Assembly: GCA_965221775.1 (NCBI GenBank)
Contig: CBDCSU010000005.1
Location: forward strand, 1,056,001 to 1,120,000
DNA: 64,000 nt
Direction: 5' to 3'
Source: Candidatus Latescibacterota bacterium
GTDB lineage: Bacteria; Latescibacterota; UBA2968; UBA8231
The position numbers and the translations under genes were made by a program. Positions 12,886 through 46,181 of this stretch are shown here, piece by piece. The notes beneath the pieces are model-generated. The model had not been told where the DNA came from. It did not search any database and saw nothing but the letters and a program-made list of their open reading frames with translations. How positions within the stretch are numbered: the first letter of the stretch is position 1; each line of letters begins with the position of its first letter.

Positions 12886-12910
12886 GTGGTCCTGCTCCCG
12901 GCGCTGAGCC
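12886..12910 (-). repeat. Displaced copy of the 3' end of the SAF-domain gene (matches 13856-13880)
   Basis: 21/25 identity with a 13-bp exact core GGTCCTGCTCCCG; reads AQRREQDH versus ALRREQDR in the gene. Confidence 0.65.
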
Positions 12911-12941
12911 GCCCTTCGCGAGGCGGCCGGCCGCTGCCGGC

Positions 12942-13823
12942 TCACTCTCCCGCGACCTCGATCCGCAGACGGCAGTGGTCGCTCGCGCCCCACTCTTCGA
13001 CCGAGTTCATGGCGCGCACGCTTACGCTTTCGTGAAAACCGCGGGAGGCGAAGGCGTAGTCGAGCTGGTTCTGCGCGGTCCCGGGGTTCCTTCCGCGCGT
13101 GTAGTAGGTGGGGACGTTCAGGGTGTCCGGCGGCAGGCCTGGCGGCGTGGGACTCGCCCGCCGGCCCGCGGGGTGCCGGGGCCCCAGGAACTCCATGCCG
13201 AGGGCGTCCATCCTGTCCGTGACGGTGCGGTCGCGAGCCGGCAGCGCCAGGCGATTGTCGTCGGTGGCTCCGTAGATCATGTTCAGATCGCCCGCGGCGA
13301 GTATGCGGTGCGTACCCGGGTCGGTGCTGCCGATGAAGGCGGACAGGTCCGAGATGATGCGGTGCGCCGAGCCGTCCGAGTAGCCCACGGGCCACTTGCT
13401 GTCGGCGCGCGGATGCGGTGTGGTCCAGCGCGCGTACATGGACACGGCGATGAAGGGCGGGGCGTCCTTCGGGATGATGCGGGCTGCCGCTGTCGTCCCG
13501 ATCCCGCTGACGGCTATCTCGTCTTCAGCCGTAGCGCATATCGGGCTGACCTGCTTGAACCACTCGACCTCGACCCGGTCTGACAGCTTCACCACCATCG
13601 CCCAACGGTCGTACAGATGCGGCCACCGGTCGCCATACCAACGCGAATTCCAGAGATGCGCGTCCCAGTGTTCCACAGGCCCCGTATCAATTCTGTCAGC
13701 CACGTCGGGCGGCGGTGGTTGGCCCGCCTCCTGCAGCAGGGCCACGTCGGCGTCCATCTCCAGGAGTTGACGCCAGGGTTCGTCGCGTTTGGCGATGTTC
13801 CAGCTCACTGCAACTACGGCCAC
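12942..13823 (-). CDS. Endonuclease/exonuclease/phosphatase (EEP) family protein
   Basis: SWNI, DVALLQEA, AGDLN, QLDYAF, SDH; GTG start after GGAGG; codon usage looks less GC-rich than neighbours. Confidence 0.85.
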   Translation of the reverse strand: MAVVAVSWNIAKRDEPWRQLLEMDADVALLQEAGQPPPPDVADRIDTGPVEHWDAHLWNSRWYGDRWPHLYDRWAMVVKLSDRVEVEWFKQVSPICATAEDEIAVSGIGTTAAARIIPKDAPPFIAVSMYARWTTPHPRADSKWPVGYSDGSAHRIISDLSAFIGSTDPGTHRILAAGDLNMIYGATDDNRLALPARDRTVTDRMDALGMEFLGPRHPAGRRASPTPPGLPPDTLNVPTYYTRGRNPGTAQNQLDYAFASRGFHESVSVRAMNSVEEWGASDHCRLRIEVAGE

Positions 13824-13840
13824 CCGTCCCTCCGCTGATC

Positions 13841-15196
13841 TCAGGGATCGAGGATGCGGTCCTGCTCCCGCCGCAGCGCCAGCAGAAAGCCCTCCTCCAG
13901 AGCCACATCCGCGTAGCGCACCACTTCGCCGGCGGCCACGGCTGACTTCAGCCTCGCGCCGGACGACAGGCCGAGGGGCAGGAGCCCTTCGGCCCGGGCC
14001 GCCGCCGCGGTCTCGATCACCCCGTTCACCGTGTAGCCGCCGCCGCCGTCGAGGACCTCGCCGGCGCGCAGGTCCCGCTTGGCCACGGTCACCGTGTCGG
14101 CCACCGGTCGCTCGAGAGGCGCCCCCGTGGGCCGCTGGTAGAGGGCGGCCCGGGCGATCGACAGGGGCGCCTCCACGGCCACGAGGTGATACGCCCGCCA
14201 GAGCAGGAAGTTGCGGCCGTCCCCGCCGGCGTGGCAGTGGTAGCCGGCCAGGTCCTCGCGGATGAAGGGGTGCTCGGCGCGGATGACGCAGAACACGCCG
14301 GTGCCCAGCGGGTCGGGCAGCATCGTGCGTCCGTCGGCGGCGACGCTGTTGGCCAGCTCGACGACGCCGGAGCGGCCCAGCAGGCCCCCCTCCTCGCGCA
14401 GGCTCAAACGGCGCGGGATCTCCTCCACGTTGACCGAGGGCTCGTGCATGCCGCGCACGTCGGGCGGCAGGCCGGTCATGTTGGCCAGGGCCGTCATCTC
14501 CACCTGCGCCTTGGTGCCGTCGCGGAAGGAGTTGAACATCCTCGTGTTGATCGTGCGCCGCTCCATGAGGTCGTCGTCGAAGCCGTAGCGGTCCTGCACC
14601 GAGTCGGGGGTGCCGGCCTCGTCGTCGGCGTAACGCACGGTGCCGCGGCCGGCGGCGACGATCTCGAAGCCGAGGGTGCGGGCCCACTCGACCATCTCCA
14701 TGATGCAGCCGGGCTGGTCGCCGTCGACGAGGGTGTAGACCACGCCGGCGGCGTCGGCCCGCCTCCGGAGCAGGGCGCCCACGGTGACGTCGGCCTCGAC
14801 GTTGACCATGACCACGTGGCGGCCGGCCTCGATCGCGGCCAGGGCGTGGCGGGCGCCGGCCTCGGGCACGCCGGTGGCCTCGACGACGACGTCGACCTCC
14901 GCGCAGCCCGCCGCCAGCAGCGGGTCCCCGGTCACCGCGCACCGGCCCGAGCGCACGGCGTCGGCCACGGCGCTCTCTGAATCCGCCGCGACCCCCCGCT
15001 CCTGCTGCCCGCAGGCGGCCAGCACCTGCCGGGCGCGCTCCGGGTCGACATCGGCGACGACGGCGGTCTCCATCCCCGGAGACTGGGCGAGCTGCACGAT
15101 CAGGCCGCCGCCGAACTTGCCGGCGCCGATGACGGCCGCGCGCACCGGACGCCCGCGGCGCTCGCGCTCGGCCAGCAGGTCGCTGTAGAGGCTCAC
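13841..15196 (-). CDS. Homoserine-dehydrogenase-like oxidoreductase with C-terminal SAF domain
   Basis: VIGAGKFG, VMVNVEAD, DGDQPG, SFRDGTK, AKRDLRAGEVLDGGGGY. Confidence 0.9.
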   Translation of the reverse strand: MSLYSDLLAERERRGRPVRAAVIGAGKFGGGLIVQLAQSPGMETAVVADVDPERARQVLAACGQQERGVAADSESAVADAVRSGRCAVTGDPLLAAGCAEVDVVVEATGVPEAGARHALAAIEAGRHVVMVNVEADVTVGALLRRRADAAGVVYTLVDGDQPGCIMEMVEWARTLGFEIVAAGRGTVRYADDEAGTPDSVQDRYGFDDDLMERRTINTRMFNSFRDGTKAQVEMTALANMTGLPPDVRGMHEPSVNVEEIPRRLSLREEGGLLGRSGVVELANSVAADGRTMLPDPLGTGVFCVIRAEHPFIREDLAGYHCHAGGDGRNFLLWRAYHLVAVEAPLSIARAALYQRPTGAPLERPVADTVTVAKRDLRAGEVLDGGGGYTVNGVIETAAAARAEGLLPLGLSSGARLKSAVAAGEVVRYADVALEEGFLLALRREQDRILDP

Positions 15197-16206
15197 AGGG
15201 TCACGGTCCGGCCCGTCTGTCCCGCCTCCAGAGCGGCCAGGCAGAGGGCCAGGGACTTGACCGCGTCGGCGTAGGAGGAGCGGATCCTCGAGCCGTCGCC
15301 GGCGGCCACCGCCTCGACGAAGACCTCGTCGATCCCCGGACCCGGGGCGGTGCGGGTCTCGGTGGCCATCTCCTCCCCCTCGCCCTCTTCCCTGGGGCGC
15401 CGCTGCCGGACGGCCACCCGCTCCCGCCCCCAGGTGAGCAGGCACTGGTCGTAGAGGACGTCGACGATGTTGGTCTCGCTCCAGTCGAGGTTGTCGTAGG
15501 CCCAGGTCGTGGTCAGGGTGCCGAGGGCGCCGGACTCGAACTCGAGGATCACGGCGTGGACGTCGGGGCAGTCGATGTGGGGGATCTGGCGGTTGGCGTG
15601 GCGCGCCGTCACCGCGCCGACCTCGCCCACGAGGAAGCGCATCATGTCGAGGGTGTGGGTCGCCTGCTCCACCAGCTGCCCCCCGGACTGGGCCAGGGTG
15701 GTGACCCAGCTCTTGCGGTCCGGCGCGATACGGCCCGAGCCGCTCCAGTAGCGGCCGCTGGCGAGACTGACGGCGGCGCCTTCCAGGGCTTGGCGGGCGA
15801 TGTCGGTGGAGCCGAGGTAGCGGAGCTGGTAGCCGACGCAGGTGATCAGGCCGGCGTCCTCGACGGCGGCCTCGATGCGCAGGGCCGGGTCGAGGTGGCG
15901 GGCCACCGGTTTCTCGACGAAGAACGGCAGCCCCCGGTCGATGACGGCCAGCTCCGGCTCGCCGTGGGCGAAGACGGGGAGGCTGAGGTAGACGGCGTCG
16001 AGATCGTCGCGCTCGAGCATGCGGCGGAAGTCGGTGAAGGCCTCGGCGCCGGTGAGTTCGGCCGCCTCCCGGGCCCGGGCCTCGTCGATGTCGCAGACCG
16101 CCGCCAGGCGAGCCCGCTCCATGCCGGCCAAGCGGTTCATGTGCCCCCGGGCGTTGCCGCCACAGCCGATGAACCCGATGTCGACGGTCTTCTCTGCCTC
16201 TGCCAC
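15193..16206 (-). CDS. Gfo/Idh/MocA oxidoreductase
   Basis: GFIGCGG, EKP, GYQLRY, EQATH. Confidence 0.92.
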   Translation of the reverse strand: MAEAEKTVDIGFIGCGGNARGHMNRLAGMERARLAAVCDIDEARAREAAELTGAEAFTDFRRMLERDDLDAVYLSLPVFAHGEPELAVIDRGLPFFVEKPVARHLDPALRIEAAVEDAGLITCVGYQLRYLGSTDIARQALEGAAVSLASGRYWSGSGRIAPDRKSWVTTLAQSGGQLVEQATHTLDMMRFLVGEVGAVTARHANRQIPHIDCPDVHAVILEFESGALGTLTTTWAYDNLDWSETNIVDVLYDQCLLTWGRERVAVRQRRPREEGEGEEMATETRTAPGPGIDEVFVEAVAAGDGSRIRSSYADAVKSLALCLAALEAGQTGRTVTL

Positions 16207-16289
16207 GAGCGTCCCCTCCCTTTGCGGTCCGCGTCTGGCGTGAGCATAGCGGATGCCCGGAGCCGGAGAAAGGCGGACCCGGTTTTCTC

Positions 16290-16319
16290 TTGCCCGTCGA
16301 GCGAGGCCCTGGGTATACT
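16290..16319 (+). promoter_or_regulatory. Putative sigma70 promoter for the helicase gene
   Basis: TTGCCC-N18-TATACT in an AT-richer patch upstream of the ORF. Confidence 0.45.
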
Positions 16320-16336
16320 TATGAACCAGTGCTTGT

Positions 16337-19411: not shown

Positions 19412-19432
19412 GGCGGGCCGAGCCGGCCGGGG

Positions 19433-21114: not shown

Positions 21115-21132
21115 CGTCGTCCCAAGGCAACC

Positions 21133-28085: not shown

Positions 28086-28140
28086 CCCGCCGCTCAGGGC
28101 AGATGCCAGCGTACCGGCTCCAGGCGCGTCTCCTCCGGCG
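28086..28140 (-). repeat. Displaced copy of the 3' end of the BNR/sialidase gene (matches 28578-28632)
   Basis: Reads APEETRLEPVRWHLP* versus SPEQTRLELVRWRLP*; stop codon and 8 following bases conserved. Confidence 0.85.
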
Positions 28141-28220
28141 CCGAGGCGGGAGCAGCGGTGCATGGCGAGCTCGAAAACGCTTGCGCGGGAACCGCTTGGA
28201 GAAGCCTTGACGCTTAGGGG

Positions 28221-28256
28221 GGCGATGCTCACCTTCGATTCAAGGTGAGCATCGCC
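28221..28256. repeat. Perfect 15-bp inverted repeat
   Basis: GGCGATGCTCACCTT-cgattc-AAGGTGAGCATCGCC. Confidence 0.9.
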
Positions 28257-28296
28257 GCTCTTCTGCTCACACCCCTGACCTCGGAGGGAACCGCCC

Positions 28297-28503
28297 ATGC
28301 GCGCAGATCAACAGCCAGCCACGAAGGCCGACCTTGAACAACTTGAGCGCAATCTGAGGACGGAGATCCGGTCTCTGACGACGATCGTGGAGAGAAAGTT
28401 CGCCACCCTCGACGAGCGGCTGACTCTGGCGGGTCAGGCCCTGGCCGGAGACACAGACAGCTGGCGCGAGAGGGTGGTCGAAGAGATGGCCGAACAGGAG
28501 TAG
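28297..28503 (+). CDS. Small coiled-coil protein (DUF1640-like ATKADL motif), possibly truncated
   Basis: RBS GGAGGG; PATKADLEQLERNLRTEIRSL. Confidence 0.55.
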   Translation: MRADQQPATKADLEQLERNLRTEIRSLTTIVERKFATLDERLTLAGQALAGDTDSWRERVVEEMAEQE

Positions 28504-28585
28504 GGGTCGCCGGGCGCCGAGCCGGCGGCCTGCGGGGCTCAGCCGAAGTCCCGCTGAGCCCACCCGTTTGGGATGGACCCGCCGC

Positions 28586-29725
28586 TCACGGCAGGCGCCA
28601 ACGCACCAGTTCCAGGCGCGTCTGCTCCGGAGACTCCCGGTACGAGTAGCAGGTCAGCAGCTCTTCATTCTCCAGCTCCACCGTGTTGCCGAACCCGCCT
28701 CCCTGGGCCAGGCCCCAGGGCGTGCGCCCCTCGATGGTGATCCGGTCCGCCGAGAAGTCCCAGGTCTCGCCGTCGTCGTGGCTGACCAGGGCCCGCAGGC
28801 CCAGAGGCTGGAAGGTGGACCGCTGGGTGTAGGTCAGTAGCACCCGCCCGTCCGCCAGCCGCAGGGCCCGCATGTAGTGCAAGCCGTAGTCCCCGAAGTC
28901 GCTCAGGCTCGACCAAGTGAGGCCGCCGTCGGCGGATCGGCACACCAAGGTCCGGTCGATGCCGTCGTCACCCGCGGGGACCGCGCGTCCGTCTTCCATG
29001 GGGAACATCGGGCTCGGGGGCCCGCAGCGGATCCAGTGGATGAGGTCGCCCCCGCGGGTCAGATAGTTGAAGTCCTCGCCGAAGAAGCCGTCGTAGTTGT
29101 CGTAGGGCCGCTCGCCGTAGTCGGGGATCGCCACCCGCCGGGTCTGGTCCCAGGTGACGCCTTCGTCCGTGGACCGCCACATCCAGGCCAAGGCCGAGTC
29201 CCCCAGGCTCACCCCGTAGAGCAGGGTCCCGTCGGGCCGCTCCACGACGTTGCGGCTGGTGTGCGTCCACTTCTCCTCCGGCTCGCCGCGGCGGGCCTCG
29301 CCCGTCAGCAGGAGCTTCGTCCGCTCCCAGGTGCGGCCGCCGTCGGTGGAGCGGTGCAGGTAGCTGTGGATGCTGCCGTCCTCGTTGCGGGCGTCCCTCT
29401 CCAGGATGTGGCTGCTGGAGAACAGAACGCCGGCGCTCGTGCAGGTCAGCCACTGCTCGCGGCCGATGACGTCATCGGCCACCTCGGGCTCCGTCCAGGT
29501 TCGGCCGCCGTCGACGGACCGCCGCAGGGGCATGGTCTCGGTCCAGGTGCCGGCCTCGGGGTCTCCCTTGTTGTCGAGGGAGACGAGGACCAGCTCGCCC
29601 CCGGGCAGGAGCGCCAAGCTCGGCTTGTACCCCTCCCCGAGGTCGAGGCGCTCGGCCTCGATCGTCCAGGTGCCCAGGCGGCGCGGGTGATCCACCCGGA
29701 TCGGCAGGTCGGTGGTCGGGTTCAT
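28586..29725 (-). CDS. BNR/Asp-box (sialidase-like) protein
   Basis: Asp-boxes SVDGGRTW, STDGGRTW, STDEGVTW, SADGGLTW, SHDDGETW. Confidence 0.88.
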   Translation of the reverse strand: MNPTTDLPIRVDHPRRLGTWTIEAERLDLGEGYKPSLALLPGGELVLVSLDNKGDPEAGTWTETMPLRRSVDGGRTWTEPEVADDVIGREQWLTCTSAGVLFSSSHILERDARNEDGSIHSYLHRSTDGGRTWERTKLLLTGEARRGEPEEKWTHTSRNVVERPDGTLLYGVSLGDSALAWMWRSTDEGVTWDQTRRVAIPDYGERPYDNYDGFFGEDFNYLTRGGDLIHWIRCGPPSPMFPMEDGRAVPAGDDGIDRTLVCRSADGGLTWSSLSDFGDYGLHYMRALRLADGRVLLTYTQRSTFQPLGLRALVSHDDGETWDFSADRITIEGRTPWGLAQGGGFGNTVELENEELLTCYSYRESPEQTRLELVRWRLP

Positions 29726-33819: not shown

Positions 33820-34566
33820 GTGAAAAGCCCCCGAGCGGTCGTGCGCAACTGGCGCGACAGCGAATGCTACCTCGGCCATGACAACGCCATCGTCTGGCCG
33901 ATCCTGAACCCCGCCGGCGACGGCTCGCCTTTCCGGTGCCTGACCCACCTGAGCGGCCTCGCCGGCCACTCCCTGCAGGGGGGCAAGAGCACCAACTACC
34001 ACGCCCACGCCGACTCCGAGCAGTACTACTACATCCTCTCCGGCCAGGCGGAGGTGCTCATCGGCACGGAGCGCCACGCCGTCAGCGAGGGATCGGTGGC
34101 CTACTTCCCTCCCGGGGTCTCGCACCAGCTCCTCGGCGAGACCAACCCCGACTGGATGCAGTACCTGATCATCACCTGCCCGGTGCCGGAGGGCCGGCGC
34201 GGCAGCGAGCCCCGGGTGCTGAACTGGCGCGACGCCCAGCCGAACATGGGCGTCCACGGCAACGCCGTGACCTGGCAGCTCCTGGAGCGGCTGGAGGCGG
34301 AGGAGCCGGTCACCGACCAGCCCTGCCTGCTCGCCTTCTGGTACCTGGCTCGGCAGGCCGTGGGCCGGGGCAAGGCCTCCGACTTCCACGTCCACAACGA
34401 CAAGGAGCAGGTCTACTACGTGCTGGAGGGAGAGGGCACGGTGGTCACCGGCTTCGACGCCCACCCGGTGAGGGAGGGCGACACTGTTTACCTGCCCATC
34501 GGCGTGCCCCACGCCATCCTCAACGACCGCCACGACGGCTGGCTCTCGTACCTCGTGATCAGCTGA
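33820..34566 (+). CDS. Bicupin protein
   Basis: Two cupin motifs: HAHADSEQYYYILSG...H and HVHNDKEQVYYVLEG...H. Confidence 0.88.
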   Translation: MKSPRAVVRNWRDSECYLGHDNAIVWPILNPAGDGSPFRCLTHLSGLAGHSLQGGKSTNYHAHADSEQYYYILSGQAEVLIGTERHAVSEGSVAYFPPGVSHQLLGETNPDWMQYLIITCPVPEGRRGSEPRVLNWRDAQPNMGVHGNAVTWQLLERLEAEEPVTDQPCLLAFWYLARQAVGRGKASDFHVHNDKEQVYYVLEGEGTVVTGFDAHPVREGDTVYLPIGVPHAILNDRHDGWLSYLVIS

Positions 34567-36188
34567 TGGCCTGGGACGTGCTGATCCGGGGGGGCCGCGT
34601 CGTCGACGGCAGCGGCAACCCCTGGTTCCGCGGCGACGTGGCCCTCGCCGGCGACCGCGTCGCCGCGGTGACCGCGCCGGGGGCCGTCCCGCCGGAGAAC
34701 GCCGGCGAGGTCGTCGACGCCGGGGACGCCGTGGTCTGCCCGGGCTTCATCGACATCCAGTCCCACTCGATCTATCCGCTGATGGCGGACGGCCGCTGCC
34801 TCTCCAAGATCACCCAGGGCGTGACCACCGAGATCATGGGCGAGGCCACCACCCCGGCGCCGGTGACCGGCCGCAACGAGGGCGGCATCGGCACCGCCGT
34901 TTACGGCGGCCTGCTGGCCGACTGGGTGGAGCCGGCGAAGAAGTGGACGCGCTTCCGCCACTGGCTGGAGGCGGTGGAGGCCGCCGGCACCTCGCCCAAC
35001 GTCGGCTCCTACCTCGGCGGCGGCACCCTGCGCAGTTGCGCCAAGGGGATGGACATGACCGCCGCCACGCCGGAGGAGCGGCGGCTCATGGCGCGGGTGG
35101 CGGCGGAGGCGATGGAGGACGGCGCCTTCGGCCTCTCGTACGCGCTGATCTACCCGCCCGACTGCTACGCCGACACCGGCGAGATCGTCGAGGTCTGCGA
35201 GGTCGTGGCCCGCTGCAACGGCAGCTACATCACCCACCTGCGGTCGGAAGGGGCGGAGATCTTCAGCGCCCTCGACGAGGCCTTCGAGATCGGCGTCCGC
35301 GCCGGTGTGCCGGTGGAGATCTACCACCTGAAGGCGGCGGGCCGGAACCACTGGGACAAGATGCCCGAGGTCATCGGCCGCATCGACCGGGCCCGCGCCG
35401 GCGGGCTGGACGTGGCCGCCGACATGTACCCCTACGACGCCTCGGGCACCGGCCTGACCGCGGTGCTGCCGCCGTGGACGGCGGAGGGGGGGAAGCTCTT
35501 CGAGCGTCTGGAGGACCCGGCCGAGCGCGAGAGGATCCGGCGCGCCGTCATCGACCCCGACGGCGGCTGGGAGCCGATGGTCACCGAGCACGGCCCCGAG
35601 GGGGTGATGCCGATCGGCTTCCGCAAGCCGGAGAACCAGGCGTACGTGGGCCGGCGCCTCTCCGAGATCGCCGCCGAGCGCGGCGAGGACTGGTTCGACA
35701 CCGTCTGCCACCTGCTGCTGTCGGAACGCCAGCGCATCGGCACGATCTACTACTCCATGACCGAGGACAACCTGCGCCTGCAGCTCGTCCAGCCGTGGGT
35801 CAAGATCTCCACCGACGCCGGCGGCGTCGACCCGGCCTGGGCGCGTGACCTGGGGCCGGTGCACCCCCGCGGCTACGGCACCTATCCGCGCGTCCTCGGC
35901 CGCTTCGTCCGCGACCTGGGGGTCCTGCCCCTGGAGGACGCGGTCCGCAAGATGACCTCGGCCGTGGCCGACCGTCTGGGCCTGCGCCAGCGGGGCCTGC
36001 TGCGCGAGGGCCTGCTCGCCGACGTGGTGATCTTCGACCCCGAGACGGTCTCGGACCGCGCCACCTTCGAGGAGCCCCACCAGTTGTCGACGGGGGTGCG
36101 CGATGTGTGGGTGAACGGCGGGCGGGTGCTTCGGGACGGGGAGCACACCGGGGCCACGCCGGGCCGCTTCGTGCGGCCCTGGAGCTGA
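34566..36188 (+). CDS. N-acyl-D-amino acid deacylase
   Basis: GGRVVDGSG, PGFIDIQSH, THLRSEG, HPRGYGTYPRVLG, ADVVIFDP. Confidence 0.93.
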   Translation: MAWDVLIRGGRVVDGSGNPWFRGDVALAGDRVAAVTAPGAVPPENAGEVVDAGDAVVCPGFIDIQSHSIYPLMADGRCLSKITQGVTTEIMGEATTPAPVTGRNEGGIGTAVYGGLLADWVEPAKKWTRFRHWLEAVEAAGTSPNVGSYLGGGTLRSCAKGMDMTAATPEERRLMARVAAEAMEDGAFGLSYALIYPPDCYADTGEIVEVCEVVARCNGSYITHLRSEGAEIFSALDEAFEIGVRAGVPVEIYHLKAAGRNHWDKMPEVIGRIDRARAGGLDVAADMYPYDASGTGLTAVLPPWTAEGGKLFERLEDPAERERIRRAVIDPDGGWEPMVTEHGPEGVMPIGFRKPENQAYVGRRLSEIAAERGEDWFDTVCHLLLSERQRIGTIYYSMTEDNLRLQLVQPWVKISTDAGGVDPAWARDLGPVHPRGYGTYPRVLGRFVRDLGVLPLEDAVRKMTSAVADRLGLRQRGLLREGLLADVVIFDPETVSDRATFEEPHQLSTGVRDVWVNGGRVLRDGEHTGATPGRFVRPWS

Positions 36189-36762
36189 GCCGCGGGAGTC
36201 CCGCCATGGGGAAGGCAGGCATCGCCCTTCACCGGGCGGCGGGTGCTGCGAGACCGGGAGCCACCGGCGCTACGAGGGGTTCCGCCATGAGGAAGGCAGG
36301 CCTCGCCCTTCGCCGGGCGGCGGGTGCTGCGCGACGGGGAGCACACCGGGGCCACCCCCGGCCGCTTCGTGCGGCCCTGGAGCTGAGCCGCCAGGAGTCC
36401 CGCCATGCGCAAGGCAGGCATCGCCCTTCACCGGGCGGCGGGTGCTGCGAGACCGGGAGCCACCGGCGCTACGAGGGGTTCCGCCATGAGGAAGGCAGGC
36501 ATTGCGCTTAACCGGGCGGCGGGTGCTGCGAGACCGGGAGCCACTGGCGCCACGAGGGGTTCCGCCATGGGGAAGGCAGGCATCGCCCTTCGCCGGGCGG
36601 CGGGTGCTGCGAGACGGGGAGCCACCGGCGCTACGAGGGATTCCGCCATGAGGAAGGCTGGCATTGCGCTTCGCCGGGCGGCGGGTGCTGCGAGACGGGG
36701 AGCCACCGGCGTTACGGGAAGTCCCGCCATGAGGAAGGCTGGCATCGAGCGCCGGGCGGCGG
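36121..36762 (+). repeat. Tandem array of 81-bp units at a gene junction, including a second copy of the deacylase 3' end (36319-36407)
   Basis: CCGCCATG recurs with ATG at 36206, 36287, 36405, 36486, 36567, 36648 and 36729 (spacing 81, 118, 81, 81, 81, 81). Confidence 0.95.
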
Positions 36763-39743
36763 CCCTGCTCTGGCTCTGGGCGGGAGGCGCCGGCGCCGGC
36801 GAGGCCTTCGTCACCGTCGATCTGACCGACCTCTACCACGGCCGCTTCATCGGCGCCGACATGGGCGACGGCTACCGGATCGCCGAGGGGCAGCTGCCCG
36901 CGGCGGGCTCCCGCGTCGAGATCGGGGGCATCCCCTTCCACATCGGCACGCGGGAGGGCGGCGACCACCTGGACGTGGGCCTGGCCCGCTGGCCCGATGT
37001 GGAGGAGGACCCGGTGGGGTTCTACTCCCACTACCAACCCGACGGGTACGGCGATCCCGAGTGCCCGGTGGTGCGCATCCCGCGGCAGAACTACTCGGGG
37101 CTCTACCTGCTCTGCCTGGCCGACACCGATCCCGCGAAGACCCCGGTGGTCTCCTTCCGGCTGGGGCTGCACGACGGCCACGGGATCCTCTACGACAGCG
37201 GCGTCACCGTGCCCCGGTGGGACGAGCCGGACAACGAGCGGGTCCTGGCCCACCGGCCGCTGCGCCTCACCGGGGAGGGTGGAGAGAAGGACGGGCGGCT
37301 GTTCGTGGTGAAGGCGCCCCTGCGTTCGGGGGACATCCAGGACATCGCCGAGCCGGGGGACCACCTGGACTTGGAGCTGACCAAGGAACTGCACGTGGCG
37401 GTGCGCAATCCCGACCCGGCGCGGTTCCGCGTGCGCCCCCTGGGCCGCCGCAGCGCCGTGCGCGTGGTCGCCCTCACCCTGGCGGTGGCGCCGATGCAGA
37501 TGCGGGTCTCTTCGGCGGAGGTGGGGAACGTCTTCGTGGCGCAGCCGCCGGTCTTCTCCGCGGCCCTGCGGAACATCACCTCTCAGCCGCGGCGGGCCCG
37601 GGTGGAGGCGGTGGCCACCGACTACTATGGCCGCGAGACCCGCACGCGGGGGAGCCTGCTGCTGCCGCCACTGGCCGCCGACACCCTGCGCCTGGAGCTG
37701 CCCCGGGAGACGCTCGGCTGGTTCGAGGTCGTCTTCCGCCTCCTCGACGGCGAGGAGGTCTCCGTCGAGCGCCGCACCACCTTCGCCCTGCTGCCCGAGG
37801 ACCGCCGGCGGGCGACCGTCCGGGACTCGCCCTTCGGTATCTGGTGCTTCGGCAAGGGCCACCGCGGCACCACCGTCGACCAGGCCGGGCCGCTGATGTA
37901 CAAGGCGGGGATCCGGCGCACCTTCGGCTTCGGCTACGAGGCGCTGCGGGAGCACGGCCTGACGAAGGGCCAGCACTCCAGCATCGTGGGCACCCACAAG
38001 GTCGGCGAGACGGACACCGAGGCCCTGCGCCGCACCTTCGAGGCGTGGCCGGAGACGCGCCAGGCCCTGGTCTTCCACGAGAGCAACATCGGGCTGCTGA
38101 AGACGCGTCCGGGGTTCCTGACGGGGGACGGACCGGCGCCGCTGGACTCGGCGGAGACGGCGGAGCTGGAGCGGCGCTGGGAGCACGCGGTGGCGGCCAG
38201 CGAGGCGGTGCGGCGCATCGACCCGGAGATGGAGCTGGTCTTCGGCAACATGGTGCAGCCCTCCATCGAGCAGTTCCTGGCGCGCGGGTATCCGCGTGAG
38301 CTCATCGACCGCCTGGGAGAGGAGTCCCCCGGCTTCATGCGCATGCCCGAGCGCCAGCCCGAGGTGGCCGGCTTCGGCAGCCTCTGGTGGATGAAGGAGA
38401 TGGCCCGCCACTACGGGTACGGCGACGTGGGGCTGGCCGTCTCCTTCGAGTGGATGTACCACTCCACCAACCCCGGCAACCTCCACCCGCGCACCGCCGC
38501 CGCCTACAACGTCCGCGACTGCCTGCTGGCCCTGGCCTACGGCGTGCCCCACGTCAACCCGGCCCTCGCCTACGACGTGGGCAACGCCTACTACTTCTCC
38601 AACTGGGGCGCCTCCGGCCTCGCCCACCGCCCGCCCGAGCTGAACCCCAAGCCCGGGTACGTGACCTACGCCACGCTGACGGCTCAGCTCGACCGGGCCC
38701 GGTTCTCGCGCAAACTGGACACGGGCTCCACCAGCCTCTTCGCCCTCGAGTTCACCCGCCCCGAGGGCGGCCCGGTCTACGCCCTGTGGACGATCCGCGG
38801 CGAGAGGGAGGTCCGCCTGTCCGTGCGCGGCTCGGGGCCCGCCCGGGTGACGAACGGCAGCACTCCTGCGGCGGCGCCCGCGGACGGCGAGGTGACCGTC
38901 GACGACGACGATCCACCGCGTAACGTCAGCGGCCCCGCGGCGGCCCTGGTGACGGACGGCATGGGCAACAGCTTTCCGGCGGATGTCGCGGACGGCGAGG
39001 GGGTCGTCCTCGTGGATGATTCACCGCGCTACCTCAGCGGCGTCGAGGTGATCGCGGTGAAGGCCGGGGCCTCGCGCTACACCGCGGCGCCCGGACCCCG
39101 GGCCGTCCTGCTTCACGACTTGAACGACCCCGGCGCCTGGCGGGTGAGCGCCCGCCGGGATACGGCCTTCGAGAACTACACCTGGGACGTGCTCCGCCGT
39201 CCGGGGCGTCTGTCCTGGAGTTCCGTGCAGGACCCCGAGCGCGGCGCCGTGACCCGCGTGGCCCTGGACGGACCCCAAGGCGGCCCGGACGTGACCGCCT
39301 GGTACAACTACTCCGAGCTGGACGAGCCCGTCCCGCTGCCGGGAGAGCCGCGCCAGATCGGCCTGTGGGTCCACGGCAACTCCAGCTGGAGCCGCATCGT
39401 CTTCGTCCTGGAGGACGCCGAGGGCGAGGAGTGGACCCACCTGGGGGCCGCCCTCCACGGCCGCGCCGACTGGAACACCAACGACACGGAGAGCACCTCC
39501 TTCGTCAACTTCGACGGCTGGCGCTACATGGGGATCGACCTGCCGGGGGAGCATCCCGTCGACCGCTACCAGTGGCCGCGCAAGTGCAACTGGCGCGCCA
39601 CCGGCGGCGACGGCCTGGTGGACCACCCGCTGCGGCTGAAGGGGTTCTACGTGCAGCTGCGGGAGAAGCTGGTCTACATCGACGAGATGGTGCCGGCCAC
39701 GAGCCGGCACCTGCTGCTCGACGACCTGATGTGCTCCTACTGA
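36729..39743 (+). CDS. Large secreted protein, possibly glycoside-hydrolase-like; reading frame open from 36405 through the repeats
   Basis: Signal peptide after the last repeat ATG; SPFG, ELNPKPGYVTYA and VNFDGWRY resemble GH/CBM modular proteins. Confidence 0.7.
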   Translation: MRKAGIERRAAALLWLWAGGAGAGEAFVTVDLTDLYHGRFIGADMGDGYRIAEGQLPAAGSRVEIGGIPFHIGTREGGDHLDVGLARWPDVEEDPVGFYSHYQPDGYGDPECPVVRIPRQNYSGLYLLCLADTDPAKTPVVSFRLGLHDGHGILYDSGVTVPRWDEPDNERVLAHRPLRLTGEGGEKDGRLFVVKAPLRSGDIQDIAEPGDHLDLELTKELHVAVRNPDPARFRVRPLGRRSAVRVVALTLAVAPMQMRVSSAEVGNVFVAQPPVFSAALRNITSQPRRARVEAVATDYYGRETRTRGSLLLPPLAADTLRLELPRETLGWFEVVFRLLDGEEVSVERRTTFALLPEDRRRATVRDSPFGIWCFGKGHRGTTVDQAGPLMYKAGIRRTFGFGYEALREHGLTKGQHSSIVGTHKVGETDTEALRRTFEAWPETRQALVFHESNIGLLKTRPGFLTGDGPAPLDSAETAELERRWEHAVAASEAVRRIDPEMELVFGNMVQPSIEQFLARGYPRELIDRLGEESPGFMRMPERQPEVAGFGSLWWMKEMARHYGYGDVGLAVSFEWMYHSTNPGNLHPRTAAAYNVRDCLLALAYGVPHVNPALAYDVGNAYYFSNWGASGLAHRPPELNPKPGYVTYATLTAQLDRARFSRKLDTGSTSLFALEFTRPEGGPVYALWTIRGEREVRLSVRGSGPARVTNGSTPAAAPADGEVTVDDDDPPRNVSGPAAALVTDGMGNSFPADVADGEGVVLVDDSPRYLSGVEVIAVKAGASRYTAAPGPRAVLLHDLNDPGAWRVSARRDTAFENYTWDVLRRPGRLSWSSVQDPERGAVTRVALDGPQGGPDVTAWYNYSELDEPVPLPGEPRQIGLWVHGNSSWSRIVFVLEDAEGEEWTHLGAALHGRADWNTNDTESTSFVNFDGWRYMGIDLPGEHPVDRYQWPRKCNWRATGGDGLVDHPLRLKGFYVQLREKLVYIDEMVPATSRHLLLDDLMCSY

Positions 39744-39828
39744 TCTGCGAGCCGGGTCCGCCCGACGGGGGCAACAGCGCCCCTGCGCGGCCGATCCGCC
39801 CGGCGCCTCGCAAGCGTCGGGGGCGTCG

Positions 39829-41067: not shown

Positions 41068-41084
41068 GGGGCGCCTCCCAAAAG

Positions 41085-41380: not shown

Positions 41381-41479
41381 GGTGCGGCGAGAGAGCTGTG
41401 CCGGCCAAAGCGGTGAGTCGACCGCCATGGCGTCGGGCGAAGCGCCGGAGCCCGGGCGGGCGCCGGCGGCCGGACGGCC

Positions 41480-41641
41480 TTACCGCTCCTCGCGGTAGAC
41501 GACGTGCTTGCGCACCGTGGGATCGTACTTCTTGATCTCCAGGCGGCCCTGCTGGTTGCGGCGGTTCTTGGAGGTGTAGTAGCGGTGGTCGCTCTCGGTG
41601 CTCTTCAAGGCGATCTGATTGCGGGGGCCGCTCTTGGCCAT
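41480..41641 (-). CDS. rpmG: 50S ribosomal protein L33 (Cys-free type)
   Basis: [42 protein letters not shown]. Confidence 0.96.
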
Positions 41642-41733
41642 GGCATTGCTTCCGGTGGGAGGTTTGCTGTCCTGAGCCGACAGAAGATACACGGATGGCC
41701 CGAATCCCGCTATATCCTCGGCGGCGGCGGCCC

Positions 41734-42621
41734 GTGAGCGGCCTGGCGCGCGGCGGCGCCCTGCACGCCCTGGCGGCGGTGCTCCTGTGGTCGACGGTGG
41801 CCTCCGCCTTCAAGCTCTCCCTGCGCGAGCTGTCGCCGCCGCAGCTCGTCTTCGCCAGCAGCCTCGTGTCGGCCGCCTTCCTCGGGACCGTCCTCGCCCT
41901 GCAGGGCCGCCTGCCGGAGCTGCTCACCCTGCCCCGCCGCCAGTGGCTGCGTTCCGCCGGCCTCGGGCTGCTCAACCCCTGCCTCTACTACCTGGTCCTG
42001 CTGGAAGCCTACCACCGGCTGCCGGCGCAGCAGGCCCAGGCCCTCAACTACACCTGGGCCCTGGTCCTCGCCTACCTGTCGGCCCTGCTGCTGCGCCAGC
42101 GGCTGCTGCGCACCGACGTGCTCGCCGGCTTCATCTGCTACGGCGGCGCCCTCGTCGTCGCCACCCGCGGTCACCTCCTCGAGCTGCGCTTCGACGACGG
42201 CCTCGGCGTCGCCCTCGCCTTGGGCAGCACCCTGATCTGGGGCCTCTACTGGGTCGGGATCACCCGCGATCCGGTGGATGCGGCGACGCGGCTGTTCCTC
42301 AACTTCCTCCTCGGACTGCCCTGGGCGGCCCTGGTCTGCGGCCTGCGCGCCGACTTCGCCTTCGGCTGGAAGGGCTGGGCCGGCGCCGCCTACGTGGGCT
42401 TCTTCGAGATGGGCCTCACCTTCCTCCTCTGGCTCGCCGCCCTGCGCCGCGCCGGCAACGCCTCCCGCGTGGCCAACCTGATTTTCCTCTCCCCCTTCCT
42501 CTCCCTGGTCTTCCTGCACCACCTCGTGGGGGAGAGGATCGAGACGGCCACGCTGGTGGGTCTCGCCGTCATCGTCGCGGGTCTGCTGATCCAGCGGCGG
42601 GGGGCGGCGCGGGGGCGGTGA
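41734..42621 (+). CDS. DMT/EamA family transporter
   Basis: About 10 transmembrane segments; [35 protein letters not shown]. Confidence 0.92.
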
Positions 42622-42864
42622 GGCCCGCCGGCGGGGGCGGCAAGGGCGGACGCTTCGCGGATGCTGGCTGAGGGCCCTTGCCTTTTTGGCAGTGACACGT
42701 AGGTTATTCGCCTGAACCTCGTGCTCTGATGCCTTGTGCATCTCTTCCGATTCCGAGCCGCCTTCTGGCCGGAAATCCTACGGGTTCACCATCTGACGCA
42801 GGCGCTTGGCGCCTGAATCAGTTGGTTCACACAGGATGCAGTTTCGCCAAGTAGAGAAAGAGGA

Positions 42865-44580
42865 ATGGGCAAAGCTGAAGAGGGCCGCTCCGGCCTTGTT
42901 GATTTTCCAAACGATCCAAGAGAGTTAGAGACACGCCAGATCCAGGAGTGCCTGCGCGATGCGGGCTTCTCCTCGGAGGACCAGGACTGGCTGCTGCGCG
43001 TCCTTGCACGCCCGGACTGCTTTGGGAGTACTGCACGCGACGCCGCATTCAAAGAGGGCTTCGTGGATACCTTCGAGGGCGTCCTGCGGCAGATTCTGGA
43101 TGGGACGAAGCCAGAGGACCGTCAGACCCGCCTGGCCATCCTGTTCGGCTTCATGCTCAACTGTGGTCCGGTCTACTACAGGGAGGAGCTTCGCCCCTCT
43201 GTCGAAGGATCCTGGGCAACCGAATTCCGGAGGCAGGCAGGGTTCTGTGCGCGAAGTCTGGACTGGCATACCCTCGACGCAATGAAGGACTCCTCGTCCT
43301 TCCTGTTCGCCAAGCTGATTCCACATCTCTTCCCTGATGGTCTGCCGTTGACAGAGGTCGTCAACCTCGATGCCCTCGATCCCGTCAAGCGAACGGAGTG
43401 GTCCAGCAGTGACTTCAGGGACCCTGGAGCTCTCGAATTCTGGCTGATCTGGCGCTTTCGCAATGATGAGGAGCATCGCGGCACGGTCAACCTGCGCACA
43501 CTGCTGCCGGCCTTTGTCGATCTTCCGCCAGAGGTCCTGGGGGAAAAGCTGCTAGGTCTCCTGAACGCCATCGACTATGCGCTGAACATTGCGAATGCCA
43601 GGAGTACCGCTGGACTGGATCCCATGAATCGAGGATGGCGACTGGTTGCCCGCGAGTTGACTCCCTTCCTGGAGCTCTTGCATGAGAAACAGCCCCACTC
43701 GCACCGGGAACCGTCGATCCTGCTCAAGGCATGGTGGGCGCTGGCCGTAAAGGTTCACGGCCGTAGCATGGGGGGGCTGGAAGAGGAGCTTTCCCCCGAA
43801 CGGAGAGACCAACTCGTTGAGAGTGCAGCCAAGCAATTCGGCCTTCTGCGCAAGGTATTGCGGGAATCGCCCGAACATTTCGCGGGCCAGGATTGCACCG
43901 GCCAGGTCTCCGACTTCTACCACGAGGCATTCCGCGTGCTGCGCATCTTCGCCCCCCCGTGGAAGCGGCTGAAGCCCCTGCTGCTGGTCTTCACCGGAAT
44001 GAAGATCCCCGCAGTTGCCCCAGACCTGCGCCCTTGGTCCGAATCGGGCAGAGAGCCCCCGCCGCATTCATATAGTCGGATACCTCTGTGGATCGCAATC
44101 AGCATGTATCCCCAGTATCTCCAAGATGAACTCAAGAGGGACCCCTACCTGCACGGCCTGCGCGAAGAGTTCGCCGCATTCTGTCTCGGGCGTCTCAAGA
44201 CAGACGCCGAGGCCAAGTTCGTCGAGCCTCGACCCTACTGGCGTCAGTCCTACGTACGGGCCTTGGCGGCCTTGCGCGTCAACCCCGGAGGCCGGGCGCA
44301 CCGGACCGTATTCTGGCTGCTCAACAACGATCCGGACGAGACGGTCCGCGCCTATGCCAAGAAGGCGCACAAGAGAATCCGGCACCTGGACCGCAAGAAA
44401 CCCAACCTGGATGACGGTGCCTCGCCTCGCCGCCCCCTCTTTGAGGCATTCTGGTGGCTCCGTCAGGCCCACCTCCTAACCCTCGGGATAGAGATTGATG
44501 CCGCAGGCGCCATGCGGACGCGCCGCAAGGAACTGCAGCGTACCCGGGAGAAGGATGACCGCCCCCGCTGGGAAGGGTAG
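42865..44580 (+). CDS. Hypothetical 571-aa protein, predicted mostly helical
   Basis: Long ORF with RBS AGAGGA; HEAT-like segment LLNNDPDETVRAYAKKA; no recognised family. Confidence 0.85.
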   Translation: MGKAEEGRSGLVDFPNDPRELETRQIQECLRDAGFSSEDQDWLLRVLARPDCFGSTARDAAFKEGFVDTFEGVLRQILDGTKPEDRQTRLAILFGFMLNCGPVYYREELRPSVEGSWATEFRRQAGFCARSLDWHTLDAMKDSSSFLFAKLIPHLFPDGLPLTEVVNLDALDPVKRTEWSSSDFRDPGALEFWLIWRFRNDEEHRGTVNLRTLLPAFVDLPPEVLGEKLLGLLNAIDYALNIANARSTAGLDPMNRGWRLVARELTPFLELLHEKQPHSHREPSILLKAWWALAVKVHGRSMGGLEEELSPERRDQLVESAAKQFGLLRKVLRESPEHFAGQDCTGQVSDFYHEAFRVLRIFAPPWKRLKPLLLVFTGMKIPAVAPDLRPWSESGREPPPHSYSRIPLWIAISMYPQYLQDELKRDPYLHGLREEFAAFCLGRLKTDAEAKFVEPRPYWRQSYVRALAALRVNPGGRAHRTVFWLLNNDPDETVRAYAKKAHKRIRHLDRKKPNLDDGASPRRPLFEAFWWLRQAHLLTLGIEIDAAGAMRTRRKELQRTREKDDRPRWEG

Positions 44581-44726
44581 ACCGGGCAGAGCCCATCGCA
44601 TCACAGGCCAGGAACTCTTGCCTTACTCAGGTGTCACCCATAGCGGAATCAACTCGTCGGTCCTCAATTGGGAAGAATGGTGTCCCCATGAGCCGACAAA
44701 TCCCAATAGGAAAGGAGGTGATAAGG

Positions 44727-44891
44727 ATGGCCAACTCTGGTAGCGAACGCAGTCAAGCTGATCTTGACAATCGCGCCAATCAGCTGAATTCCAATAACGA
44801 TGCTTATTGGCAGTCGCGAGAGCACGAGCAGAGACCCGATGATTGGGAATCTCGCGAGACTCAGGACTCGGCAGAGTCCGACAGTGGTTGA
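44727..44891 (+). CDS. 54-aa acidic Asn-rich microprotein
   Basis: Near-perfect SD AAGGAGGTG; DLDNRANQLNSNNDAYWQSREHEQRPDDW. Confidence 0.75.
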   Translation: MANSGSERSQADLDNRANQLNSNNDAYWQSREHEQRPDDWESRETQDSAESDSG

Positions 44892-45057
44892 TCGATGATC
44901 TCTTGAGTTGATCAGCCCGCACTCTCGATGCGCCCACACTTAGCGCCTTGATAGCCGCACTCCTGATCTCTCTGAGATCGTGTAGGGCGCGTCCTTTCAG
45001 ACCACTGGGCGACGGCAATCTCGTCCCCACACAGGTCCTCTGCGAAAGGAGACCGCA

Positions 45058-45927
45058 ATGCACCGCCACGTAATTCTGAACGCGCCAACAGTCAACTTTC
45101 ACCTGCTGGCATCCTGCAACATGAGTTGCGGGTTTTGTTTCGCCACATTTCAGGACATCCCCGGCCTATCCTGGTCGAACCGGGAGGATGACGCGTTTGC
45201 CATTGTGGACGCGTTGTGCATGGCCGGCTTCCGCAAGATCAACTTCGCCGGTGGCGAGCCAACTCTTCTGCCTTGGCTGCACGAGCTGATCCAGCGGACC
45301 CACTCACACGGCGTTACTACCTCCATCGTGACCAACGGCTCTCGAATCTCCGGGGACTGGCTCGACAGCCTGGACGGCAGTCTCGACATCGCTGCGCTGA
45401 GCATCGATAGCGTGGCTGTAGAGACGCAGCGCAAGATCGGCCGGGTCGAGAAAGGCAGAGGCAAGGAGCCCTTGAGCGAGGCTCACTACCTGGCTCTGGG
45501 TGAGATGATCCGGGCGCACGGCATCCGCCTGAAGGTGAACACGGTTGTCAACAGGTACAACTGTGCCGAGGACCTTCGCCCGTTCATCCTGGCGATTCGG
45601 CCGGAGCGTTGGAAGATGTTCCAGGCCCTTCCGGTAGAGGGTCAGAACGACGGCCGCATCGCCGAAATGACGGTGACCGACGACGAGTTCCGATGGTACG
45701 TAGAGCGCAATCGCACCGTCGAAGACTGCGGAATCGCGGTCGTGCCGGAGAGCAACGAACTGATGACGGGCAGCTACGTCATGGTCGATCCGCGCGGCCG
45801 CTTCTTCGACAACACCCAGGGGCGGCATACCTACAGCAGGCCGCTCCTGGAAGTAGGCGTCGCCCAGGCACTGAACGATGTGGTGGTACATGTCGGCGGG
45901 TTTCAGGAGAGGGGCGGGCTCTACTAG
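45058..45927 (+). CDS. Prokaryotic viperin (pVip), radical SAM antiviral ddhNTP synthase
   Basis: VNFHLLASCNMSCGFCF (CxxxCxxC), KINFAGGEP, SIVTNGS, LSIDS, KVNTVV, RWKMFQAL.VEGQND, ESNELMTGSYVMVDP.GRFFDN, C-terminal ERGGLY. Confidence 0.95.
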   Translation: MHRHVILNAPTVNFHLLASCNMSCGFCFATFQDIPGLSWSNREDDAFAIVDALCMAGFRKINFAGGEPTLLPWLHELIQRTHSHGVTTSIVTNGSRISGDWLDSLDGSLDIAALSIDSVAVETQRKIGRVEKGRGKEPLSEAHYLALGEMIRAHGIRLKVNTVVNRYNCAEDLRPFILAIRPERWKMFQALPVEGQNDGRIAEMTVTDDEFRWYVERNRTVEDCGIAVVPESNELMTGSYVMVDPRGRFFDNTQGRHTYSRPLLEVGVAQALNDVVVHVGGFQERGGLY

Positions 45928-46181
45928 TGACGGCCCCTCTGTTCCCCCTTTCGTACGATCGAGCGACGGGCGGGTGAGTGAGTAGCAAGAGACGTTCCGG
46001 CGGTCATCGTCGGGGCGTCTCTTGCGCCCGCGCTGCCCGCCGGGCACGTCTGGAACGCCCAATGAACCTCGTTGGCCACATGTCGGCCGGTCTTGCCGTC
46101 ATCGTCTCGGGACTGCTGATCCAGCGGTGGGGTGACCGCATCGGAGGCTCAGGGGCTTGTTCCAGCTTTACAGAGCCCTGG

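Follow-up and report, generated by a model that had tools for sequence, protein, structure and literature searches.

Insertions flanked by duplicated gene ends in the genome of a sponge-associated Latescibacterota bacterium

A stretch of 64,000 nucleotides from a Candidatus Latescibacterota bacterium (hereafter the window, positions C5:1056001-1120000 of the genome called G000 here) contains four genes whose 3' ends are found a second time nearby. Three of these sites (1, 2 and 4) are probably cases of insertion with long target duplication, that is, of a recombinase-independent event in which the recipient's own target is duplicated around the incoming DNA. The duplication is shown cleanly at sites 1 and 2, and less cleanly at site 4. 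The preliminary description of the window had proposed gene-end insertion, with an intact gene and a displaced end, for all four sites; this holds for sites 1, 2 and 4 and fails for site 3, which is a tandem array without cargo.

G000 comprises 5.36 Mb in six contigs, with 70% G+C. The stretch is present in sponge and marine metagenome runs, and the organism is an uncultured, sponge-associated bacterium. Since high G+C gives many false open reading frames (ORFs), genes were called by codon statistics, which yielded 4191 genes covering 90% of G000. Nine further genomes of the genus were compared, their kinship being judged by identities alone: G004 is the closest (94-96% identity to G000), followed by G002 and G007 (about 90-94%), G006 (about 83-92%) and five others (68-81%). 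Data from two metagenome runs, X1 and X2, were available as contigs, not reads. Eleven insertion-type loci were compared with relatives, namely sites 1, 2 and 4 and eight loci elsewhere in G000 (L102, L112, L103, L094, L107, L110, L106 and L101), the latter with G002, G004, G006 and G007; site 3 is counted apart.

Four gene ends in the window

All four repeat pairs of the preliminary description are present where it placed them, its names for the host genes are upheld by Pfam, PADLOC and NCBIfam matches, and the four targets have, as it said, no sequence in common. The pairs are as follows.

12888-12910 / 13858-13880: SAF pair (site 1), 20 of 23 positions identical
28086-28138 / 28578-28630: BNR pair (site 2), 45 of 53 positions identical
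36116-36193 / 36314-36391: deacylase pair (site 3), 92% of 78 nt identical, extending to about 88 nt with one indel
42559-42602 / 46089-46132: DMT pair (site 4), 40 of 44 positions identical

The gene-end search suggested earlier as a check was made by comparing the last 75 nt of 3684 called genes with the next 10 kb downstream. It revealed an enrichment: a score of at least 20 was reached by 63 of the 3684 real pairings, as against 0/3684 with permuted downstream DNA and 6/3684 on the inverted strand. The same score was attained by 46 segments from inside genes and, when gene ends were set against the DNA upstream of them, by 35 ends; local direct repeats are therefore enriched in general, many of them being tandem paralogs. 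Sites 2, 3 and 4, with scores of 29, 53 and 29, stand higher than all permuted controls. Site 1 scores 14, a value matched by 237 of the 3684 permuted controls and not significant alone; it is accepted because relatives carry the precise empty site with a single copy. The same structures are found in the separately assembled genomes G004, G002 and G007, which excludes an assembly artefact and answers the worry, voiced at the outset, that strains had been merged into a chimera.

Site 1 has the following features.

13841-15445, minus strand: host gene, a DRL-type oxidoreductase with a C-terminal SAF domain (Pfam DRL_cat 2e-46, SAF 6.1e-7)
13856-13880: anchor core in the functional SAF end, present in single copy in the empty genomes G006, G003 and G001
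13841-13855, minus strand: insert-derived last codons and stop codon of the SAF gene (alignment; missing from the genomes with an empty site)
12911-13840, minus strand: cargo, with an EEP-family gene (12942-13838) that has its own GGAGG ribosome-binding site, then a G+C-rich hairpin
12874-12910, minus strand: displaced original SAF end, with the old stop (12874-12876) and the core (12886-12910)

The coding signal of the SAF gene begins at about 15196, and the gene call is 13841-15196. The EEP gene and its flanks are present in G000, G004, G002 and G007 and missing from G006, G003 and G001. In the latter three genomes the two convergent genes lie 4 nt apart and there is one copy of the core; in G000 the distance of 4 nt separates the displaced SAF end from the stop of the other gene (11091-12869). 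The matches of the two flanks overlap by 25 nt in G006. This displaced piece exists, as had been described, but is longer than was thought, since it runs from 12874 to 12910 and includes the old stop. The insertion point lies 12 nt ahead of the native SAF stop, and the C-terminal tail of the protein reads ...DRILDP (stop) in G000 versus the native ...DRLTA (stop) in G006. The ribosome-binding site of the EEP gene is located 3' of the SAF stop.

The EEP protein (12942-13838, minus strand) gives a weak full-length match to Exo_endo_phos in Pfam (E 6.7e-5, 23.2 bits versus a cut-off of 24.5). Homologs occur in 18 of 132 genomes of the class. A SAF homolog was found beside the EEP gene at none of 15 loci outside the genus, nor beside one paralog in G000; the closest of these homologs is only 67-69% identical, so that the genomes do not include the true donor. 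In another family of the same class (loci L039-L047), EEP homologs are flanked by copies of a 28-nt motif ending in GATTGAAAC; the copies lie about 850-950 nt apart (for example L047:1420-1447, 2367-2394 and 3208-3235) and resemble an array of single-gene cassettes. The motif was rejected as a cause of the insertions in G000, where it has no match at up to 6 substitutions.

Site 2 is simpler.

28586-29725, minus strand: host gene, a BNR/Asp-box repeat protein (Pfam BNR_2 2.2e-15)
28578-28630: anchor, consisting of the last 15 codons, the stop and 8 nt past it
28139-28577: cargo, with a hairpin (28216-28261) and an ORF of 68 codons (28297-28503, plus strand)
28086-28138: remnant of the BNR end, with the old stop at 28094-28096

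The unit is 492 nt long, one repeat copy plus 439 nt of cargo. It is present in G000 and G004, while G002, G007 and G006 have the empty site with one repeat copy; in G002 and G007 the flank matches overlap by 54-57 nt. The 68-residue product of the ORF has nothing above the Pfam cut-off (a sub-threshold match to DUF6415 has E 0.006 and 17.8 bits versus 27.5).

At site 4 the insert is a much larger islet.

41695-42621, plus strand: host gene, an EamA/DMT transporter (Pfam EamA 1.1e-34)
42559-42602: anchor in the DMT end; the last 6 codons (42603-42621) are unlike the remnant side
42603-46088, plus strand: cargo, a low-G+C islet (0.53-0.66) encoding a protein of 571 amino acids (571-aa protein, 42865-44580) and a prokaryotic viperin (45058-45927)
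46089-46132: remnant of the DMT end
46203-46433, plus strand: FitA-like ribbon-helix-helix (RHH) gene adjoining the remnant (Pfam FitA-like_RHH 2.7e-8)

The viperin, a radical-SAM protein, is recognised by PADLOC (pVip, 1.5e-83) and NCBIfam (NF038283 viperin_w_prok, 288.9 bits versus a cut-off of 180). The same DMT end in G007 is followed by other cargo, placed between DMT-end repeats of 181 nt (44 nt in G000), and by a tandem gene pair; that cargo is a 98% copy of a xylose-isomerase-like gene that normally follows a peptidase gene. Unrelated DNA lies 3' of the DMT gene in G006, G001 and G003. Homology of the right flank begins at 46129 in G007 and at 46156 in an X2 contig. One X2 contig matches to 42594 and continues with 540 unmatched nt, and another has 742 unmatched nt before 46156. 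Runs X1 and X2 cover the flanks and almost nothing of 42772-46091, the uncovered part being no evidence either way. The variable segment is bounded by both repeat copies, and site 4, a hotspot, has no clean empty allele.

The 571-aa protein matches no family above cut-off in Pfam, NCBIfam or PADLOC. Its homologs, 48-72% identical, were found at 42 loci in Latescibacterota, Poribacteria and a few other metagenome-assembled genomes; viperin follows at 14 of the 42, and the protein may be the invariant member of a pair whose downstream module varies.

Several observations concern the surroundings of this islet. A perfect 8-3-8 palindrome (46182-46200), predicted to be operator-like, stands directly upstream of the RHH start (46203), and no partner toxin gene follows the RHH gene (46203-46433). 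In G002 (L027) and G004 (L028) the DMT and RHH genes are fused, which yields a transporter with a borrowed C-terminal tail. On the reverse strand of L029 (G007), a segment of 1053 nt encoding a xylose-isomerase-like TIM barrel occurs twice (1508-2558 and 7155-8207), the copies being 98% identical and bracketing the DMT-to-peptidase block; next to the second of these copies are another RHH gene copy and a pair of 92-nt repeats. The non-coding stretch 42712-42796, 5' of the 571-aa gene, is 80-85% identical in G032, G034, G036 and G038, which belong to another family; G038 has two copies about 3.9 kb apart, and the stretch has no Rfam match at gathering score.

Site 3 differs from the other three.

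33936-36188, plus strand: host gene, an amidohydrolase/deacylase (Pfam Amidohydro_3 3.8e-19; coding signal 34560-36188)
36121-36747, plus strand: tandem array of 118-nt and 81-nt units (TRF and repeat search)
36729-39743, plus strand: large secreted-looking protein, whose likely true start (36729) is 3' of the array (coding signal from 36741)

TRF describes the array as a 199-nt period repeated 2.2 times and an 81-nt period repeated 4.4 times. In the 118-nt unit, ~68 nt from the deacylase 3' end are followed by the spacer and by ~12 codons from the start of the next gene; the 81-nt unit lacks an internal part of this sequence. What had been taken for cargo was rejected as inserted DNA: it is this same array, which differs from one relative to another in its number of units (0 unit-start motifs in G006, 3 in G004, 3 in G002, 7 in G000 and 10 in G007). 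The second copy of the deacylase end (36319-36407) is found only in G000 among the genomes compared, and an X2 contig links 36312 straight to 36752. Because the unit contains the start of the next gene, that gene gains a series of pseudo-starts. Between 36405 and 36728, ahead of the likely true start, its first codons (MRKAGIAL...) occur in frame four to five times, and an ORF from 36405 runs through the array units; automatic annotation will therefore over-extend the gene. The large protein itself (36741-39743) has no Pfam or NCBIfam family match.

The preliminary description had regarded the two copies at each site as diverged alleles, not as decayed duplicates. Tables of ancestral states contradict this, as the cores were identical or at most 1 position apart at insertion. 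For site 1 the reconstructed ancestral cores show no difference over 23-25 nt: copy by copy, the changes at positions 35 and 37 of the G000 remnant are private to that remnant, and C at position 31 arose in the functional copy of G000 and G004. At site 2, anchor and remnant of G000 differ at 8 positions, and 4 of these changes are seen in no copy but the G000 remnant; between the G004 remnant and the functional BNR end of G000 there is 1 difference in 53 positions, a change private to the latter. The same is true of L112, where the differences between the copies are later and lineage-specific and the cores were alike at insertion. Over these three loci, then, most differences between anchor and remnant arose afterwards in single lineages, chiefly in the remnant, and a diverged donor allele is visible at none of them. 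The two copies are decaying duplicates, identical in the core at insertion. The count of synonymous differences put forward for the deacylase pair is right (4 of 4 coding differences), and such a bias arises because selection filters changes in the functional copy; two of these four arose in the functional copy, all relatives sharing the state of the internal copy.

Recurrence across the genome

The census was made on one genome, G000, by self-comparison in 24-kb windows, and gave 1603 non-overlapping local direct-repeat pairs. Among the pairs with repeats of up to 500 nt, 49 join a gene 3' end to downstream non-coding DNA and 28 are the mirror case, in which a gene 5' start is duplicated; tandem paralogs account for 34 + 18. 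The classifier is rough, as L112, labelled a 3'-end duplication, proved on inspection to be a 5'-start duplication, so that the ratio of 49 to 28 should not be taken for a real bias. The specificity for 3' ends and stop codons proposed in the preliminary description is not supported: 5' starts are duplicated too, as in the inspected case of L112, whose repeat comprises 14 codons from the start of the downstream gene and the ribosome-binding site ahead of them. Its idea of a recurring pattern is confirmed, both by the gene-end test and by the census.

A filter for identity of at least 78% and a spacer of 250-8000 nt left 26 loci of the 3'-end type and 15 of the 5'-start type, with repeats of 31-479 nt (median 89) and 23-236 nt, respectively, and a median cargo of 1.3-1.4 kb. 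The cargos look foreign: G+C is below 0.66 in 21 of 41, as against 13% of random segments. No cargo gene is common to different loci by tblastx of the 41 segments, which returned self-overlaps and a few weak matches of 34-59 residues; blastn-short likewise found no motif common to the cargo ends or cores, but self-overlaps, a few 13-18-nt matches and one repeat family of about 200 nt on C6. Twenty cargo proteins from 18 other loci were searched for recombinase, integrase and transposase domains, and none has one; nor does any in the cargo of the window. The 20 proteins include three PLD nucleases, a ThsB-like TIR protein, AbiEii, DUF6088, an AAA_14/DUF4143 ATPase and a PD-(D/E)XK nuclease, as well as a methyltransferase, an amidase, a P-type ATPase, an LRR protein, a hydrolase, an ABC pair and a luciferase-like enzyme. 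In 12 inspected loci the insert is sharply bounded at both junctions. Adjacent tandem pairs of the same anatomy, devoid of cargo, number 6, among them a perfect 73-nt pair on C4; site 3 is also of this kind.

The empty alleles that comparison with sister genomes was expected to reveal do exist, not only for sites 1 and 2. Clean single-copy empty sites were found for L102 in G004, for L112 in G004 and G006, and for L103 and L094 in G006, which brings the clean cases to 6 of the 11 insertion-type loci. The flank matches in the empty genomes overlap by 40 nt (L102), 54 nt (L112) and 123 nt (L103). L112 is filled in G000, G002 and G007 and empty in the closest relative, G004, and in G006. The contig joints listed for the metagenome runs cross no cargo; most of those listed are short-sided and probably derive from foreign organisms. 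The left flank of L106 (L106:2-304) matches four places in G006 at 94-97% and is a multicopy element there.

A remnant of a further insertion lies at the edge of the window.

63730-63769: 40-nt copy, whose partner lies about 3.45 kb on, beyond the window

Its cargo comprises a PLD-like nuclease and a ThsB-like TIR protein; the site is empty, with a single copy, in G004 and holds other cargo in G002 and G006.

Beyond the genus, among the 42 loci of the 571-aa protein, direct repeats flank the downstream cargo at L079 (79 nt), L087 (181 nt) and L063 (222 nt, 96%), and at L067 and L070 the gene is followed by fragments of its own 3' end. The pattern is therefore not confined to this genus.

Mode of insertion and its alternatives

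The preferred reading of sites 1, 2 and 4 is as follows. A foreign or accessory block of 0.44-3.5 kb entered at a gene boundary, with direct duplication of 25-55 nt of recipient sequence. One copy stays in the intact gene and the other is a non-functional, decaying remnant; where the insertion fell inside the coding sequence, the insert provides a few new last codons. Neither a recombinase in the cargo nor a fixed recognition sequence is required. The two ends of the incoming DNA may have been joined to the chromosome at two points tens to hundreds of bases apart, the outcome being a short tandem duplication with captured DNA at the new junction, and in a genome that is 90% coding only events at gene boundaries would survive. 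The flanking repeats would then permit precise loss, and filled and empty alleles could be exchanged between strains by ordinary homologous recombination via the flanking genes. Site 3 is the version without cargo, in which a tandem duplication of gene end, spacer and next start was later expanded. The insertions themselves, the empty sites, the identity of the copies at the outset, the absence of recombinases and the varying repeat lengths are shown; the manner of joining, like the subsequent excision and exchange, is inferred. As to the joining reaction itself, I tentatively favour an illegitimate, break- or replication-associated event. End joining is available, because G000 has a single Ku homolog (E 1.7e-41). 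The Ku homolog, at G000:C5:826801-827343, lies inside an open frame of 1128 amino acids and is possibly fused to other end-joining domains.

Several facts weigh against this account. The data do not distinguish end joining from template switching or from the integration of a circle via a short segment in common. The repeat of site 1 (25 nt) is below the 30 bp demanded of the published class discussed below. The count of ~40 loci comes from the census of a single genome. Five of the 11 insertion-type loci (site 4, L107, L110, L106 and L101) have no clean empty allele and other histories fit them; the last four are rearranged or have non-conserved flanks. At site 4, G002 and G004 do not carry the islet, and their DMT gene keeps the G000-type tail and is extended in frame by the terminal ~80 nt (~26 codons) of the RHH gene, a fusion that points to secondary deletion and not to an ancestral empty site. 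The distribution of L112 calls for at least two events. Finally, core position 33 of site 2 carries C in all empty sites and in the remnant of G000 but T in the other three copies, which requires either that gene conversion took place later or that the allele at insertion was slightly different.

The precision of the empty sites would also follow from a different process, which I hold to be unlikely. An islet with one repeat would be excised as a circle and would re-enter related genomes, without an integrase, by a single crossover of the Campbell type at the gene-end segment in common; the repeats would be the substrate of recombination instead of a by-product. Such cycling would account for the precise single-copy empty sites at 6 loci, for the near-identity of the copies at insertion, for the presence of L112 in conflict with relatedness and for the C/G states swapped between anchor and remnant when G000 and G004 are compared at site 2. 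It is a route of propagation, however, and still needs a first insertion event; its 23-55-nt cores are at or below the usual length for RecA-dependent crossover (threshold as given in a passage of PMC2884548), no circular junction occurs among the contig joints listed, and homologous exchange via the long flanking genes explains the patchiness equally well.

Decayed or non-autonomous site-specific elements are an improbable source of the same anatomy. A tyrosine or serine recombinase, since lost or acting in trans, would have used a gene-end att site, and the repeats would be attL and attR; a gene end, an insert with a new end and a displaced old end are what such elements leave, the insert does give new last codons at sites 1 and 4, and copies identical at insertion behave like att cores. 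The window, however, contains no integrase, as had been noted before, and neither does its cargo; recombinase domains are absent from the 20 cargo proteins of the 18 other loci as well. No tRNA or Rfam RNA was found in the window, and the 7 Phage_integrase matches of the whole genome are all far from it. There are only seven integrase genes for ~40 unrelated targets, and an enzyme acting in trans would have one specificity. The cores range from 23 to 479 nt without a common motif, the boundaries of the repeats differ at one and the same DMT end (44 nt in G000, 181 nt in G007), and 5' starts are targeted too.

The homology-assisted capture put forward in the preliminary description is not demonstrated, the anatomy being that of a duplication of the recipient's own target. 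In a model close to that idea, a donor allele of the gene end would arrive from another lineage with the cargo, be joined by homology inside the gene and illegitimately beyond it, and leave the recipient's own end as a remnant. Homology-facilitated illegitimate recombination is established in transformable bacteria, and has been described in natural transformation by de Vries and Wackernagel 2002 and Prudhomme et al. 2002 (as cited in a passage of PMC2884548). In its favour, the new tail of site 1 follows the same EQDR residues as the native one, and part of the differences between copies are synonymous; but the latter is expected anyway under selection, and two of the four deacylase differences lie in the functional copy. 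Moreover, anchor and remnant cores are identical in the inferred ancestor, both junctions are sharp although the homologous side should leave none, and the 15 EEP loci outside the genus all lack a neighbouring SAF homolog. I therefore consider this origin very improbable.

An ancestral filled state, with empty sites that arose in the relatives by deletion between repeats already present by chance, is hardly credible, even though deletion between direct repeats is common (according to a passage of PMC2884548), the state of site 4 in G002 and G004 is a deletion and L112 needs at least one loss, for repeats of 40-121 nt at 85-95% identity are not due to chance (0/3684 permuted controls reach a score of 20), the distant G001 and G003 (68-78% identity) are also empty at site 1, and the G+C content of the cargo is foreign. 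A DNA transposon or insertion sequence was rejected, there being no shared ends, no transposase and repeats that range from 23 to 479 nt.

It is possible, though doubtful, that recombinase-independent capture with target duplication is a main entry route of defence and accessory genes in this sponge-associated lineage, each islet being made by its duplication into an integrase-free cassette able to excise precisely and to re-enter related genomes at the duplicated gene end. A scope of this kind, reaching into the wider lineage, is suggested by the similar repeat-flanked cargo of the Latescibacterota and Poribacteria loci.

Relation to known systems

Capture with target duplication, as proposed here for sites 1, 2 and 4, bears on the spread of anti-phage islets (viperin, TIR, AbiE, PLD nucleases) in integrase-poor genomes. 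The ~40 examples with unrelated cargo separate the process from restriction enzymes; the filled and empty alleles, at least 6 clean pairs, form a natural data set for the rules of joining and show that the duplicated copies start identical. If true, the cassette reading would amount to a general gene mobility needing only repair and recombination functions of the host. There is also a caution for annotation, as remnants and tandem arrays yield false ORF extensions and false 'alleles'.

Actinomycete integrative elements (pSAM2 and SLP1, for instance) insert at the 3' ends of tRNA or protein genes and bring a substitute for the end that they displace. The insertions described here are like them in using a gene end, in having an insert with new last codons and a displaced old end, and in repeats that were identical when formed. 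They differ in that there is no integrase, conserved core or tRNA, in that repeat length varies at one and the same target and in that the cargo is of one or two genes. Displaced 'orphan' C-terminal modules are known from CDI/Rhs toxin loci, where a new end and a companion gene are likewise inserted and the old end is pushed downstream. Those loci, however, have a conserved motif, belong to one family and swap a domain, whereas here the targets are unrelated housekeeping genes in which no more than 4-6 residues are changed. Site 3 resembles variable-number tandem repeats generated by slippage or unequal exchange, with head-to-tail 81/118-nt units whose number varies; it differs in that the unit covers a gene end, the spacer and the start of the next gene. 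Homology-facilitated illegitimate recombination also catches foreign DNA beside a conserved gene without a dedicated recombinase; it leaves one homologous and one illegitimate junction and usually a deletion in the recipient, whereas the present insertions have two sharp junctions and a duplication of recipient DNA.

The class to which sites 1, 2 and 4 probably belong was described 25 years ago and has been little mentioned since; in the library searched, the phrase 'long target duplication' occurs in only 7 papers from 2016 on, and in the title or abstract of none of them. The founding description of insertion with long target duplication is said to be that of Nobusato et al. 2000, Gene 259:99. 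The class was defined by genome comparison for restriction-modification (RM) genes by Furuta, Abe and Kobayashi 2010 (NAR, PMC2853133), whose passages on it report long target duplications of variable length and no mobility genes, leave the mechanism unknown and suggest double-strand breakage. The features shared, as far as these passages of PMC2853133 go, are an insert below 20 kb with atypical G+C and no mobility gene, direct repeats of tens to about 420 bp that both align to a single copy in a relative, repeats that often overlap a gene 3' end (by 15 and 2 bp in H. influenzae) and a mechanism that is not known. In G000 too the segment is absent from a relative and both repeats align to one copy, at the 6 clean loci, the insert is under 20 kb and the duplication exceeds 30 bp; the last holds for site 2 (53 nt), site 4 (44 nt) and the 26 loci of the 3'-end type (31-479 nt), site 1 (23-25 nt) being short. 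The restriction-modification criterion of PMC2853133 defined the published search, not the mechanism. No restriction and modification gene pair was found in the cargo, in which one PLD protein has an NgoFVII-like domain and no methyltransferase partner. The cargo here is instead mostly non-RM, consisting of viperin with the 571-aa protein, the ThsB-like TIR protein, AbiEii, PLD nucleases and ordinary enzymes and transporters, which argues against restriction cleavage in the insertion. A further difference is that ~40 loci occur in one uncultured sponge-associated genome, 5' starts among them, and coexist with cargo-less tandem duplications. What is known, then, is the published insertion class; what is new is its recurrence at about 40 loci with other cargo.

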